Source: a virus
Taxonomy: Duplodnaviria; Caudoviricetes
Direction: 5' to 3' (one strand)
DNA: 64,000 nucleotides
Virus record (IMG/VR): IMGVR_UViG_2974674860_000001
Span: 26,491 to 90,490 of that record
The first letter of the stretch is position 1. Each line of letters begins with the position of its first letter. Below, piece by piece: positions 14,461-63,874 of the stretch. The notes under the pieces were generated by a model. It did no database searches, was not told where the DNA came from, and worked only from the letters and a program-made list of their open reading frames with translations. Made by a program: the position numbers and the translations under genes.

Positions 14461-14880
14461 GTGAAGCGGTGTGGCCGGTGCAAGATCGACCGACCGGTGA
14501 CCGCGTTCCACAAGAACAGGTCGACCAAGGATGGACTCCAGAAGTCGTGCAAATCGTGCGTCAAGGAGATCAACCGGACGTACTACCTCAGCTCGCCCCA
14601 GAAGAGCGGTGATCGACTCCGTAGCCGCAACAGGGCTAGATGGGCAGCGCGACTCGTCGTGCGTGCATTCAAGGCGTCCCACTCGTGCGTCGACTGCGGA
14701 CTCAGGGATCGGGTCGTCATGGAGTTCGACCATGTCCGCGGTGAAAAGCTCGGCGACCTTTCCAGAATGGCAAATGACGGATTCGGCGTCGAAAAGATTC
14801 TCGCGGAAATAGCGAAATGCGACCTGGTTTGTGCGAATTGCCACCGGCGCAGAACGGCCAGTCGGGCGGGCTGGAGATAG
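14461..14880 (+). CDS. HNH endonuclease
   Basis: CGRC...CKSC zinc finger, then CVDC...EFDHVRG...CANCHRRR. Confidence 0.85.
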   Translation: MKRCGRCKIDRPVTAFHKNRSTKDGLQKSCKSCVKEINRTYYLSSPQKSGDRLRSRNRARWAARLVVRAFKASHSCVDCGLRDRVVMEFDHVRGEKLGDLSRMANDGFGVEKILAEIAKCDLVCANCHRRRTASRAGWR

Positions 14881-14894
14881 GGGATAGGAATCGA

Positions 14895-15277
14895 ATGCCG
14901 GGAATGATGCACCACAATTGCAGCCGCGGTTGTTGCCTGCGCGGATCTCGGCGGATCGACTACGAGGAGGTTCGCCGCCAGATCGAGGACGAGCTGCACG
15001 GACTGCCCGAGGTCGACCTGACCCTCTGCCCGATCCTCAATATCAGATGTCCCGACGACTGTGCGGGCGACTACTGCTAGGAGATGCGTTGAAAGACAGC
15101 ACAATCGGGGAGTACACCTACAACCAGGTCCCCATCAGTGCACGGGAGATTGTTTCCGAGCGGCTGTACCACCAGGTGGGCATGCAGCGCGGGTACGCCA
15201 TCGAGGTGGCCGGCAAAATCGTCGAGGACCTGGGCCGATGGTTCGACCTGCAGCCCGACCCGCCATTCCGCCGATAG
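14895..15277 (+). other. two small hypothetical genes (14895-15080, 15089-15277)
   Basis: ATG 14895 and TTG 15089, each with an RBS-like GGA(G). Confidence 0.5.
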
Positions 15278-15293
15278 CCCCCCCGGGCGCCAC

Positions 15294-15326
15294 GAAGGCC
15301 CCCCGTCATTGCGACGGGGGGCCTTC
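15294..15326. terminator. bidirectional hairpin between the rightward operon and the tRNA 3' end
   Basis: GAAGGCCCCCCGTC-ATTGC-GACGGGGGGCCTTC, a 14-bp perfect stem. Confidence 0.8.
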
Positions 15327-15330
15327 TGCG

Positions 15331-15641
15331 TGCCCCCTCGGAGTTTCGATCTCCGCACCCGCGGATTAACTGTCCCACTTCGACTTTCGCCGCCGCAGTG
15401 CTCTGCGTTCGTGGTCTGGACTATCCCTTGACCGTAGGCTCGCGCCCGTAGGTCCGACCCGTCTAGTCTCTACACCTTCCGCCAGGCTGGCTGCCTGGCG
15501 ACTTGGCTCGGGATTGCCAGCTGGCCGGGGCGGGCCAGGGGAGGGTTCCCCGAGTTTGAGTCGTGCCATCCGGTCGGTTTCCCGGCCGGCGCTCCTATTT
15601 GGTTGTGAAGTCCGCTGCTCTTCCGAATGAGCTAAGGGGGC
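15331..15641 (-). tRNA. tRNA-Lys(UUU) interrupted by a group I intron (exon 1 15641-15608, exon 2 15369-15331)
   Basis: Exon 1 GCCCCCT-TA-GCTC-ATTCGGAA-GAGC-A-GCGGA-CTT. Exon 2 TTAA-TCCGC-GGGTG-CGGAG-ATCGAAA-CTCCG-AGGGGGC-A. Joined, they give a 73-nt cloverleaf with loop CU-UUU-AA, a perfect 7-bp acceptor stem and A73. CCA is not encoded. Confidence 0.9.
15370..15607 (-). ncRNA. group I self-splicing intron, 238 nt, IC3/Azoarcus-like, no endonuclease ORF
   Basis: Conserved elements P (AAACTCGGGGAA), Q (GGCAATCCCGAGCCAAG), R (GAAGGTGTAGAGACTAGACGG) and S (AAGGGATAGTCCAG). P7 GACTA/TAGTC, P3 CGACTC/GGGTCG, P2 and P9 GAAA tetraloops, P5 CTGGCC/GGCCAG, P6a CGCCAGGC/GCCTGGCG. Terminal G at 15370; P1 exon CUU pairs with IGS GAG via U.G. 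Confidence 0.92.
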
Positions 15642-15648
15642 GGGTCAG

Positions 15649-15657
15649 AGACTAGCA
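15649..15657 (-). promoter_or_regulatory. extended -10 promoter for the tRNA
   Basis: TGc-TAGTCT ends 7 nt before tRNA G1. Confidence 0.45.
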
Positions 15658-15727
15658 GGTGGGCGGCGGTGCGACCCAGCCGCGGCCCTCCTGCTCTAGC
15701 CCTCAGTTCACGCACACCCACTTCGCG

Positions 15728-15925
15728 TATGCGGACTGTAAACGGACTCGGTTTCCGAAACCTGCGCTGAGCTGGGGTTTTATGGGGTGGCTCTGCGGAT
15801 TAAAAGTCCGTAGAATGGACCATGCACACGCTGCATCTTTGAGTCAAATGCGCAGGTCAGAGGCCATCATGTAGACTCAAGGTAGTCCAAGATCCCCCTT
15901 GGATAAACGGACAGATAAACGGACT
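15728..15925. mobile_element. attP: attP: core about 15793-15813 flanked by arm-type sites
   Basis: The core on the minus strand reads CTACGGACTTTTAATCCGCAG (tRNA-Lys(UUU) anticodon arm). Direct repeats TATGCGGACT 15728, TAAACGGACT 15739, TAAACGGACA 15904 and TAAACGGACT 15916 flank it. It lies just upstream of the integrase. Confidence 0.85.
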
Positions 15926-16207
15926 CGACGGACGGAGCCCCGCGATGCAGGTTCAGACCCACCTCAACCCCTCCACTCGTCGATGCCGGGCGACGGCGCT
16001 CGCCGCCGACCGCGAGCCTGTGCTCGCTGGTGCCGATCGGCCCGACCTTCCGTCCTGGATTGCGCAGCCGGCGATTGTGCGTCAATGCGGAGGGCCCGCT
16101 GGACACTCGGGGGATCACGAATCTCACTGGAATGGGAAGCCGTTTCTCTGGCCCAATTCGAGCTACTGATTCCACTCACCTCAAGATTGCATTCAGGAGA
16201 CTTAACA

Positions 16208-17566
16208 ATGGATGAAACGGGCACACGAGCGAAGCGCGGCAGCGGCGGTATTCGATACCGGGCCGACAAGGACATCTGGATCGCCAGTGAAACCGTCACG
16301 CTCAACGGGAAGAGGACGCGACTCGAAGCCACGGGCAAGACCGAGACGAAGGCCCGCGCTGCCATCGCGAAGAAGCGCAACGAGTTCATCCGCGGGAAGA
16401 AGAAGAAGGCGAGCCGAGGAACCGTCACGGAGTGGCTGAACAAGTTCACCGACGAGATCGCGATCCATGACATCCGGCCGGGCACGATGCGCTCGTACAA
16501 GAGCGTCATCAACAACCACATCATTCCGACGATCGGAGACAAGAAGCTGGCCACCCTGGAGCCCGCCGACGTGCGCACGATGCGCGACGAGATCATGCGT
16601 CGCTGTGAGGCCGCGGACAAGGCGGGAACATCCAAGCGCAAGGGTGCCGGGCCGAGCCGCGCTCGATACGCACAGACGGTCCTGTCGGTTGCGCTCGCGA
16701 GAGCCGTCCAGGATGAAGTGATTGATCGCAACGTGGCGAACAAGGAGTACGTGAAGAAGCTGCCCGCTCCCGACAAGGCAGTGGCCGCGCTCGATGCCGA
16801 TCAGGCGAAGCGGTTCCTGCGCGATGTAGCCCGCAGCGAGGGCACCAACGCATCGCGGTGGGCGTTCGCGTTCCTGACGGGCGCACGGCAGGGCGAGATC
16901 CTCGGACTGGAGATCAACCGGCTCGACTTCACCTTCGACTCGTTGAAGCTCACCAAGCAGCTCCAGATCCTGCCGAACCGCCACGGCTGTGGTGAGCAGA
17001 ATGAAGACGGGACATGGCCGTGCGGGAAGACCGCTCCCCGTGCGTGCAAAGACCGTGAGTTCGACATCTCGCCGACGTACGCCGAGCAGGTGAAGGTGCT
17101 CCACGGAAGCCTCGCCCTGGTCCCCACCAAGACGAAGATGTCGAAGCGCGACCTGCCGATGGTGGGGCCGTTGAAGAAGATCCTCCAGGCGCACCTGGAG
17201 GCCACGGCGCATATGCCCAACCCGCACGGCCTGGTGTGGCGAAACGAGGACGGTTCGCCGCTGCAGCCGCGCAGTGACTTCGATACGTGGTCGGACGCTC
17301 TGACGAAGAGCGGCTTTGATCACATCAAGCTGCACTCGTCGAGGTCGAGCACGGCCAGCATCATGAGCGACATGGGAATCGATCGCGAGGTGATCGCGGA
17401 GATCCTTGGACATACCAATCTGGAGACCACGGCTGGCTACGTTGCGGTGGGTGACAAGTTCCGGCGGGATGCGCTCGGAAAGGTCGGCGGTGCGCTGATG
17501 CTGGAGCTGTTCGGAGATGACGATGGTGACGACAACGCCCCGACGACAGAAGCCATCGGGGCGTGA
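16208..17566 (+). CDS. int: tyrosine integrase
   Basis: N-terminal arm-binding domain (RGSGGIRYR). Catalytic R (GARQGE), HSSR, LGH and TAGY. ATG 16208 with AGGAG RBS. Confidence 0.95.
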   Translation: MDETGTRAKRGSGGIRYRADKDIWIASETVTLNGKRTRLEATGKTETKARAAIAKKRNEFIRGKKKKASRGTVTEWLNKFTDEIAIHDIRPGTMRSYKSVINNHIIPTIGDKKLATLEPADVRTMRDEIMRRCEAADKAGTSKRKGAGPSRARYAQTVLSVALARAVQDEVIDRNVANKEYVKKLPAPDKAVAALDADQAKRFLRDVARSEGTNASRWAFAFLTGARQGEILGLEINRLDFTFDSLKLTKQLQILPNRHGCGEQNEDGTWPCGKTAPRACKDREFDISPTYAEQVKVLHGSLALVPTKTKMSKRDLPMVGPLKKILQAHLEATAHMPNPHGLVWRNEDGSPLQPRSDFDTWSDALTKSGFDHIKLHSSRSSTASIMSDMGIDREVIAEILGHTNLETTAGYVAVGDKFRRDALGKVGGALMLELFGDDDGDDNAPTTEAIGA

Positions 17567-17589
17567 CGGTGATCAGGTCAGGCGCGGTC

Positions 17590-18363
17590 CTACGGGAACT
17601 CGGCGAGGTGTCGCTGCCGGCGCGGGCATTCCCCCGAGGTCTCGCGGAGTGCGACGGTCATCGCGAGCCCGGCAATGATCGAGGAGGCGAACACTACCGA
17701 GGTGATGCTGAGTGTGTTGAAGAAGGTCTCGGCCGGTACCGAGTTGTTGAACACGAAGCCAAGCGTGACAACCTGGCTGCCCCAGGCGAAGGCTGCGCCG
17801 GCGCCGAAGAGGTAGACGGCGATGATGTGCTTCTCCACGAAGCTCTGGGCGCGAACAACAATCGATGCGTATCCGAAGCACATGCCAGTAATGATGGCCA
17901 GCATGCCGAGCAGGATTGTGTAGGCGTTCATCCAGACGCCCTCGAAGCCCTTGAACTGCACGCCGTCGGGGAACTGGGTCGAGTCGGCGTAGGGGGAGCG
18001 GATGTAGGAGAGGATCATCCCGCCGGCGACAAGGACGCAACAGAGGATGACGGCCAGATGCAGGTCTGGTCGCCCGAGCGAATGGACGACGTGAAGCAGG
18101 AGGAGGGCGCACAGTATGACCGAGAGCATGTCGCTGAGAAGCTCACCAGTATTCGCCGCGCCGACCAGGTCGTAGACAGGCCTGCCGATCAGTGGGTCCT
18201 GAATCCTCGGGGTTTTGGCAACAAGGGCGACCGCAAGAACGCCGGACGCCGCCGTCATGTATCGAGAGCTTGGGTCGATACGCCAGTACAGGACCACGCG
18301 GATCAAAAAGATGGTGGCGAGCAGCAGGGCTGCTACTCCAAGGACGATGGTTGGGTGGTGCAT
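17590..18363 (-). CDS. polytopic membrane protein (about 7 TM)
   Basis: Alternating hydrophobic segments; TGATG-coupled to the upstream HTH gene. Confidence 0.75.
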   Translation of the reverse strand: MHHPTIVLGVAALLLATIFLIRVVLYWRIDPSSRYMTAASGVLAVALVAKTPRIQDPLIGRPVYDLVGAANTGELLSDMLSVILCALLLLHVVHSLGRPDLHLAVILCCVLVAGGMILSYIRSPYADSTQFPDGVQFKGFEGVWMNAYTILLGMLAIITGMCFGYASIVVRAQSFVEKHIIAVYLFGAGAAFAWGSQVVTLGFVFNNSVPAETFFNTLSITSVVFASSIIAGLAMTVALRETSGECPRRQRHLAEFP

Positions 18364-62714: not shown

Positions 62715-63874
62715 TGACCTGCGCTTATGGTGCGCAGGCACCTTATCCCAACGGTCTCGTACCCTCGCATAGACTCACGTCCGGATACTGGCCCAACCTG
62801 GCAAGTTGTGGCGACGCTACTCGCAACCGTGGGCACTAAGTGCCCAACGTCTGCGCTCACACGTCGCCCCGATTATTCGCGACCGATTCACTATGGAGTT
62901 CTCAATGTTCACGTAGGCATGACTCACAAGCGTCTGGGAGTGGCGCCATGCCATGCGTCACCAGACGGTAGTGTTTCGTCCCCCGCGTGGTCGCTACTCA
63001 CGTCGCATCGGGTGGTGCTTTGGCCACTACTGGCCGTGCACTGTCGCCGTCCCCCGCTAGGTCTCTGACCTGCGGTTCTAGGCGTCTGGCCTAGGCGGTC
63101 CGCGTGTCGTGCTGGTCATTTTCTCACCTCCCGTCTGGCCCCGGTGGGCCGCTGCTTTCGATGTCACAAAGCTAGCCTACCGTCCGAGACGTGCAAAAAC
63201 GTCCTGACCTGCACGTTCACCACATCGTCGCAGGTCAGCACGTGCAAGAAATTTTCCCTGTGACGTACGTCACACTGCTCTGACCTGCGGTTTTGCCGCC
63301 CAACTGTGGCGCAGGTCACACGTCGCGGGCTCTCGAACGGCGTTCGGTCGGCCATTTTCGGCGTTCTTAGGCCACCCTCATAAGTGCTGCTCAGAGCGTT
63401 TTTAGGGTGCCCTCACTTGCGCCCTGGTCGCCCGACGTGCGTTGCGCGTGCCGAATCGGGCCCATCACCGCAGGTCACGGGCGGTTTTTGGCGCGCCAAC
63501 TAAGCCAAGCCTAACTCGCATCGTCGCAGGTCAGAGCGTTGCGACCCGCTAAGCGGACCGCGACCTCGGCCGGCCGGGGCATCGCCGCAGGTCAGAGCGT
63601 TTTCTAAACGGACCGCGCAGGTCAGAGCGTTGCGCGGCGCTCGCTAGGGCTCTGACCTGCGGTTATGCGCCATCGTCGCAGGTCAGCGCGCCGAGTGTGA
63701 CGTCGGTCACAGCGCCCTCGCGCACCCTGTCTGACCTGCGCAAACGTCGCATCGTCGCACGTCAGAGCGTTGGGGGAGGGCTGCTATATGTCAAAGGGCC
63801 GCCCGACCGAACGCTCGCTCGGTTACCGGCCAGTAGCACCCTACCGAACGCTCGTTCGGTGAGCCTGACCTGCC
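62715..63874. repeat. about 15 copies of CGCAGGTCA[G/C] in both orientations
   Basis: Copies at 62715, 63065, 63204, 63229, 63280, 63310, 63469, 63525, 63586, 63616, 63652, 63677, 63731, 63756 and 63865. Confidence 0.85.

Follow-up and report, generated by a model that had tools for sequence, protein, structure and literature searches.

A candidate attachment site in the anticodon arm of tRNA-Lys(UUU), next to an intron-split phage tRNA-Lys(UUU) predicted to replace the host gene

The DNA analysed here (the window) is a stretch of 64,000 nucleotides from a virus of the class Caudoviricetes, and comprises bases 26491-90490 of the 90,490-bp virus record IMGVR_UViG_2974674860_000001. At one locus of the window, a minus-strand tRNA-Lys(UUU) gene split by a group I intron, a putative phage attachment site (attP) and a plus-strand tyrosine integrase gene (int) follow one another (Table 1). 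The core of this attP is the anticodon arm of a bacterial tRNA-Lys(UUU), and the arrangement is that of tRNA-dependent lysogeny, a mechanism described in 2024 (Guerrero-Bustamante & Hatfull, mBio, PMC10865867). In this mechanism, a tyrosine integrase acts at a core of ~8-17 bp within a host tRNA gene, the tRNA is not rebuilt, and viable lysogens need a cognate phage tRNA. The published examples are Fionnbharth (K4), Cain (K6), Cluster L, Gaia (X), the Gordonia-infecting BrutonGaster and OneUp (CQ2), and Mollymur (DL). An earlier annotation of the locus, made without database searches (the sequence-only reading), had described the mechanism as established in some mycobacteriophages, which the 2024 paper confirms and extends to Gordonia phages of Clusters CQ2 and DL.

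The core is the 21-mer CTACGGACTTTTAATCCGCAG, located on the minus strand at window positions 15793-15813, with the 15-mer CGGACTTTTAATCCG inside it at 15796-15810. An exact-match scan with one genome per species located the 21-mer at at least 120 loci, nearly all of them tRNA-Lys(TTT) genes, where it occupies positions 25-45, which are the last base of the D stem, position 26, the entire anticodon stem-loop, and positions 44 and 45. Among the matches listed, the genera with the exact core belong mostly to the Mycobacteriales (Mycobacterium, Mycolicibacterium, Gordonia, Rhodococcus, Nocardia, Williamsia, Dietzia, Corynebacterium and Prescottella), and the 21-mer is also present in the tRNA-Lys(TTT) of Rothia and Leucobacter. 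The identity between attP and host stops exactly at both core edges in 118 of the 120 loci listed, and therefore neither flank holds a D-arm or T-arm half. When attP was recombined in silico with the bacterial attachment sites (attB) of nine host genes, ARAGORN recognized a tRNA-Lys at all nine attB sites and a tRNA at none of the 18 junctions. The sequence-only reading had placed a minus-strand core between two pairs of arm repeats, with no tRNA halves in the flanks and no rebuilding of the gene upon integration, and the present results agree on each count, with the coordinate of the core refined as given above. Its suggestion that the 21-mer matches mycobacterial tRNA-Lys(TTT) genes was also correct, and the genera it had named for comparison (Gordonia, Rhodococcus and Mycobacterium) all carry the exact 21-mer in tRNA-Lys(TTT).

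Structurally, the core is a near-perfect dyad, CTACGGA / CTTTTAA / TCCGCAG, in which CTACGGA and the reverse complement of TCCGCAG differ by one base. From this geometry, the two stem halves are likely to be inverted core-type sites, and the 7-nt anticodon loop the overlap region. The core is flanked by plus-strand arm repeats of the form TAWRCGGAC, which begin at 15728, 15739, 15904 and 15916. The motif has 7 matches in the window against 0.6 expected, a count that none of 100 shuffles reached, and four of the matches fall within one 200-bp stretch. The two-site layout of the P arm is shared with BrutonGaster, where the repeats read GCGGACT. The arm repeats and the core half-sites (TCTGCGGAT; TCTACGGAC on the other strand) have 7 of 9 bases in common, and the arm repeats of BrutonGaster likewise resemble the 5' strand of the host anticodon stem.

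The 21-mer might instead be a fragment of a captured tRNA, or a mimic of the anticodon arm, with the real attP core elsewhere. Neither of the two prophage junctions, attL and attR, has been observed, and the 21-mer also occurs without tRNA flanks on a 23-kb plasmid of Mycobacterium sp. M23085 (L047:6445-6465), ~300 nt from parA and with no integrase nearby. However, the window copy sits between arm repeats, as do the anticodon-loop cores of BrutonGaster, OneUp, Mollymur and Cain, and a chance match of 21 nt is negligible (4^-21 per position over about 1.8e5 positions). We therefore hold it to be very improbable that the crossover site lies elsewhere. Another locus, L011:1206-1226, shows a core match of 29 bp, likewise without tRNA flanks; at both this and the plasmid locus no tRNA was found, and no integrase was present among the nearby open reading frames (ORFs) checked.

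The only tRNA gene found in the 90,490-bp genome is a minus-strand tRNA-Lys(ttt) at 15331-15641, which ARAGORN reports, when introns are allowed, with an intron of 238 nt after nucleotide 34. Default ARAGORN found no tRNA in the window, and an Rfam scan of 14800-16400 at E <= 1 gave no tRNA match; standard tRNA finders miss the gene because the intron splits it. Given removal of the intron, the phage encodes a tRNA cognate to its attP target, and the 73 nt left after splicing fold into a regular cloverleaf that has A73 and the anticodon UUU. The tRNA starts 151 nt from the core and shares its orientation. Spliced, the tRNA is identical to the core over 16 nt, CGGACTTTTAATCCGC; in the unspliced gene, the intron interrupts this core-like stretch and leaves segments of 7 and 9 nt. 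The 16-nt identity and a distance of about 150 bp in the same orientation had both been read correctly from the letters, as had the predominance of AAG among the Lys codons: AAA accounts for 45 of 512 (8.8%), and codon supply is therefore a weak explanation for the tRNA. No promoter of the phage tRNA was found by a sigma-70 consensus scan. The hairpin beyond its 3' end, the stem of which appears in Rfam local alignments on both strands and in the sequence, looks like a two-way terminator.

The intron has the hallmarks of a group I ribozyme, including a conserved catalytic core, a U.G pair at the 5' splice site and a terminal G. As read from the sequence, the exon CUU can pair with the intron GAG through the U.G wobble in P1, and the intron carries the blocks that are conserved in tRNA-Leu(UAA)-type introns. 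A custom covariance model, trained on 36 other viral tRNA introns with the window intron left out, gave a full-length match at 15362-15615(-) with 131.2 bits and an E value of about 1e-39, a score that is somewhat inflated because the training introns were chosen through a shared 21-mer. The model had no further match in the window or in three related loci. The Rfam model RF00028 scored the window intron at 15.4 bits, below its gathering score of 50, and two close BLAST relatives of the intron (L149 and L157) pass that score with 61 and 58.8 bits. A blastn match links the intron to the group I intron annotated in psbA of phage S-CBWM1. A 21-mer derived from the intron is present in at least 119 IMG/VR contigs, in which ARAGORN finds intron-split tRNAs at 87 loci, mostly Leu-UAA. 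According to a 2014 review, all phage group I introns known by then were in protein genes, and in the papers searched we met no account of phage tRNA genes with group I introns, nor of rescue tRNAs split in this way. Among the other intron-split viral tRNAs checked for a nearby integrase, only L140:6025-7784 (IMGVR_UViG_3300022744_000027) was positive. There, 307 nt separate a divergent tyrosine integrase bearing an Arm-DNA-bind_3 domain from a tRNA-Lys(CUU) whose group I intron, of 211 nt, is related to that of the window, and the spacer, with CACTCTTAAAC between GCTA[GA]TAGGGCGC repeats, looks like an attP by its sequence.

The third component of the module, the tyrosine integrase, lies next to the arm-flanked attP. 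Alignment recovers every one of its catalytic residues (R, K, HxxR, H and Y), and its homology across the whole protein fits the Fionnbharth/LeBron-type family. A tblastn comparison gives 51-54% identity with the Bantam, SpeedDemon, BrutonGaster, Mollymur and OneUp integrases, and covers 96-98% of the window integrase for Bantam, BrutonGaster, Mollymur and OneUp. The identity is 33-36% with Cain and Boilgate, and 32-33% with Crossroads and MAckerman. BrutonGaster, OneUp, Mollymur and Cain were assigned to tRNA-dependent lysogeny, and their integrases, together with those of Bantam and Boilgate, to one family (PMC10865867). A common layout is found in BrutonGaster, Bantam, SpeedDemon, Mollymur, OneUp, DatBoi and Cain, in which a minus-strand cognate tRNA, attP and int follow each other, with the tRNA 125-190 nt from the anticodon-loop core and int on the other side. 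BrutonGaster targets tRNA-Lys-TTT through an 11-bp core, while OneUp and Mollymur target tRNA-Ile2-CAT (PMC10865867); the BrutonGaster core computed here is also 11 bp. Beyond this module, the helicase of the window is 72.6% identical to that of Mollymur.

The remaining features of the locus are collected in Table 1. Neither Pfam nor PHROG gave a match for the 74-aa ORF that separates attP from int, and this ORF shows no similarity to the DatBoi excise or to the Bantam gp63 ORF. The 257-aa ORF likewise matches no Pfam or PHROG family, and the 127-aa helix-turn-helix (HTH) ORF is positioned as the repressors of Bantam, Mollymur and Cain are. No int promoter was found by a sigma-70 consensus scan. 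The motif GCGCAGGTCAGAG, which is oriented as int, occurs eight times in the window against 0.25 expected; the other seven copies are clustered at 63063-63741, near the right genome end, and a similar motif lies at the same place in the BrutonGaster attP. It may be an operator or promoter element. Two further arm-type motifs, TAAGCGGAC and TAAACGGAC, lie amid the GCGCAGGTCAGAG repeats of the right end (63550-63558 and 63605-63613), and may be chance copies or a second integrase-binding region.

Table 1. Features of the candidate integration and rescue module and its surroundings (window positions)
Feature	Position	Strand	Description or basis
G+C-rich hairpin	15294..15326	.	14-bp stem; just past the tRNA 3' end and the plus-strand ORF 14918-15277
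tRNA-Lys(UUU) 3' exon	15331..15369	-	nucleotides 35-73, CCA not encoded
Group I intron, IC3 tRNA type	15370..15607	-	238 nt, between nucleotides 34 and 35; without ORF; terminal G
tRNA-Lys(UUU) 5' exon	15608..15641	-	nucleotides 1-34, ends CUU
tRNA upstream region	15642..15727	-	TANNNT-type -10-like hexamer TAGTCT at 15649-15654, read from sequence
P arm	15728..15747	+	direct repeats TATGCGGAC and TAAACGGAC, 11 bp apart; motif enrichment
attP core	15793..15813	-	21 bp, host tRNA-Lys(UUU) positions 25-45
GCGCAGGTCAGAG motif	15850..15862	+	between core and P' arm
P' arm	15904..15933	+	two exact TAAACGGAC and a degenerate third, TCGACGGAC, at 15925-15933
74-aa ORF	15945..16169	+	between attP and int; called on the sister contig; place of the excise annotated in DatBoi
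Tyrosine integrase, 452 aa	16208..17566	+	Pfam PF00589 and PF14659; PHROG 1
257-aa ORF	17590..18363	-	between int and repressor; called on the sister contig; membrane protein annotated here in relatives
HTH immunity-repressor candidate, 127 aa	18363..18746	-	Pfam HTH_3, HTH_31; PHROG transcriptional repressor families

Taken as a whole, the stretch 15728-15933 would be the attP of a lambda-like tyrosine integrase in a Gordonia-type temperate phage, with two P-arm and two or three P'-arm repeats around a 21-bp core that corresponds to the anticodon arm plus two bases per side of the Mycobacteriales tRNA-Lys(UUU). Integration would leave the 5' half of the host tRNA at one junction and the 3' half at the other, and the host gene would be destroyed, since the identity ends at positions 25 and 45. 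The phage tRNA would then follow the truncated host gene downstream, at a distance of 151 nt and in matching orientation, and read-through from the host tRNA promoter would therefore be possible. Because the rescue gene is split by an intron in the anticodon loop, any rescue would depend on self-splicing of the ribozyme. The architecture itself, a non-rebuilding attP with a cognate phage tRNA, is in our judgement very probable. The full functional claim, that the spliced phage tRNA works in the natural setting and replaces the host tRNA, is given a probability of roughly 0.55. The structural part of the sequence-only reading is thus well supported, in that the non-rebuilding attP at tRNA-Lys(UUU), the cognate tRNA and the integrase family have all stood, and the replacement step keeps the status of a prediction.

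Several observations weigh against this prediction of replacement. A search of 92 Gordonia genomes and of metagenome contigs revealed neither a lysogen nor an attL or attR: the Gordonia genomes contain no integrase homologues at E <= 1e-70, an attL-type 30-mer and an attP-left 29-mer have no match in the metagenome contigs, and the sole exact copy of the integrase found is on a Logan contig with an intact attP. Additionally, the T loop of the phage tRNA (15341-15355, minus strand) reads ATCGA, with A for T at position 54, which is unusual in an elongator tRNA; the tRNA-Lys of BrutonGaster has the same A54. A third point concerns the Gordonia phage Daredevil, which is placed alongside Mollymur in Cluster DL and is described as inserting at tRNA-Lys-TTT without restoring that gene, having no phage tRNA and forming clear plaques "as predicted" (PMC10865867). 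The window phage is probably Daredevil, although this identity could not be confirmed. Its genome is a deposited one, with proteins present in NCBI, UniRef and nr, and Daredevil, although listed in the NCBI taxonomy and expected to be related, is missing from the integrase and helicase hits of searches that leave out the window's own record. It is like Daredevil as described in its tRNA-Lys-TTT target that is not rebuilt, in its relatedness to Mollymur, and in the lack of a tRNA by default finders; it is unlike that description in having a complete, intron-split tRNA-Lys(UUU) 151 nt from the core. If the identity holds, the clear plaques argue against efficient rescue on G. terrae 3612.

The module may thus be built as described while rescue fails, because too little mature tRNA is made, whether owing to inefficient splicing, weak expression or the unusual T loop, and integration is lethal. 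The phage would then form clear plaques and be effectively lytic on the laboratory host, with lysogeny abolished by intron invasion or by a swap of the cassette. In addition to the clear plaques of Daredevil, if it is the same phage, the near-identical sister phages in two sequencing runs, which carry a different, intron-less tRNA-Lys cassette in the same place, favor such a failure. However, the identity with Daredevil is unconfirmed, and something else could account for the clear plaques. No conserved element is missing from the intron, which aligns with the model over its whole length and shows few non-canonical pairs, and the exons form a perfect cloverleaf without sign of decay. Moreover, the BrutonGaster tRNA is counted as a cognate rescue tRNA despite its A54 (PMC10865867). 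We consider failed rescue a serious possibility, although short of an even chance, and it is the Daredevil question that keeps the functional claim from being rated higher.

If the window is Daredevil, the attP reading has already been published for this phage, and the published tRNA-less, clear-plaque example is not tRNA-less, since its tRNA is present and hidden by the intron. The clear plaques would then reflect either poor rescue by the intron-split gene on G. terrae 3612 or some other cause. If rescue does fail, the phage would be a case in which an intron or a cassette swap has abolished lysogeny.

Close relatives of the window phage are present in two sequencing runs (X1, X2) of one study, and offer a natural counterpart to the intron-split gene. 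In the phage collection, a megablast search with 15000-17600 gave no match, probably because the window's own record is masked there. A 56-kb sister contig encodes an identical integrase protein, with the same core and the same arms, and 116 other bases replace window positions 15338-15684, so that the tRNA is exchanged along with its upstream region up to 15684. The replacement is an intron-less tRNA-Lys(ttt) (L127:9354-9427, minus strand). Compared with several Mycolicibacterium-type tRNA-Lys genes, it shows no difference at the 52 positions outside the core, against 6 differences among the 21 inside (Fisher p = 3e-4), and the changes in the core preserve stem pairing. By this comparison, the sister tRNA-Lys is host-derived. 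The two phages thus form a near-isogenic pair that differs in the rescue cassette at this locus, and in which splicing-dependent rescue could be tested directly.

The tRNA could also serve mainly in lytic growth or in counter-defence, replacing a tRNA-Lys(UUU) cut by anticodon nucleases, with the loss of the target gene tolerated through a second host copy. An anticodon-nuclease role for tRNA-Lys-TTT has been raised before (PMC10865867), and the anticodon-arm motif GACTTTTAATC is present twice per genome in two of the five candidate host genera. One of these second copies is plasmid-borne and a mere fragment without a tRNA, and the other three genera have a single copy per genome. AAA codons are rare, and the tRNA is the sole one of the genome and cognate to the attP target. 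Furthermore, the tRNA adjoins attP in the same orientation in eight related phages of either isotype (Lys-UUU or CAU). A mainly lytic or defensive role is therefore improbable, and replacement of the host tRNA after integration remains the preferred reading.

The rescue tRNA-Lys(UUU) genes of the related phages were compared with the closest bacterial gene among 119, a set selected for having the 21-mer, and showed a recurrent pattern. The differences inside and outside the core are 6/21 and 0/52 in MAckerman (L254), 7/21 and 2/52 in Crossroads (L253), 7/21 and 5/52 in Cain (L257:5628-5701), which has the same arm as Crossroads, and 5/21 and 6/52 in BrutonGaster (L002:2103-2176). The spliced tRNA of the window shows the reverse pattern, with 3/21 inside the core (1/10 of the stem bases) and 14/52 outside, and is the only one compared that has an intron. 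Four intron-less phages (the X2 sister, MAckerman, Crossroads and Cain), representing three distinct recoded arms, are bacterial-like at all or most positions outside the core. Recoding like that of the sister tRNA is thus seen in three rescue tRNAs of mycobacteriophages. The recoded arm of the X2 sister was found in 0 of 401 sampled genomes of the host order, and the arms of Crossroads and MAckerman in 0 of 151 sampled genomes of the host family.

This recoding suggests a selective pressure on rescue tRNAs that PMC10865867 does not discuss. We propose, tentatively, that a rescue tRNA gene may need protection from the phage's own integrase, as an exact host arm near attP could act as a decoy attB and would invite deletion or faulty excision. 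Most phages would avoid the decoy by recoding the anticodon stem. The window phage would keep a host-like arm (16/16 central nucleotides once spliced), and the intron would split the 7-bp overlap region in the DNA. If this idea is true, survival of the lysogen would depend on the ribozyme. We regard it as doubtful, given that few independent lineages are available, that the bacterial comparison set was selected for the 21-mer, and that 9-10 nt of identity to their own cores cause the CAT-type phages no obvious problem. Alternatively, the recoded stems could evade tRNA-cutting toxins. The position of the intron has a simpler explanation, as this family always inserts after CUU at 34/35, a context that tRNA-Lys(UUU) shares with tRNA-Leu(UAA).

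The combination of an attP that disrupts tRNA-Lys(UUU) and a phage-borne substitute for the gene is an already published mechanism and ordinary on its own. The new element is the intron-split rescue tRNA, the rescue function of which is predicted from its sequence; an intron-split gene of this kind is a hidden rescue tRNA that escapes standard tRNA finders. The natural cassette pair and the core-limited recoding of rescue tRNAs are new as well. The hidden tRNA likely also corrects the published tRNA-less description, a correction that rests on the unconfirmed identity with Daredevil.

Compared with the phages of tRNA-dependent lysogeny, the window phage has the same arm sites, a short core in the anticodon loop, a cognate phage tRNA and an integrase of the same family. 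Its elements also succeed one another (tRNA, attP, int, membrane protein, repressor) as they do in BrutonGaster, Bantam, Mollymur and Cain. It differs from the phages of PMC10865867 in a core of 21 bp, compared with 8-17 bp, with the full dyad identical to attB, and in a rescue tRNA split by a group I intron. A canonical, tRNA-rebuilding attP is ruled out here, as the right flank of the core has neither T arm nor acceptor. Boilgate (K8) and Ximenita (K6), which have such canonical sites with cores of 43-45 bp, resemble the window phage in integrase family, in the target tRNA-Lys-TTT, and in a crossover in or near the anticodon loop. In contrast, their cores reach the acceptor end via the T arm and attL keeps a working tRNA, whereas the identity here stops at position 45.

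The intron, for its part, is inserted as in the cyanobacterial tRNA-Leu(UAA) IC3 intron, after CUU and between nucleotides 34 and 35. Like the bacterial IC3 tRNA introns (tRNA-Leu(UAA) and the Azoarcus tRNA-Ile), it has the P1 wobble, the conserved core blocks and the terminal G, and it matches over its full length a model built largely from viral tRNA-Leu(UAA) introns. Unlike these bacterial examples, its host gene is the tRNA-Lys(UUU) of a high-GC actinobacteriophage, in which self-splicing is predicted.

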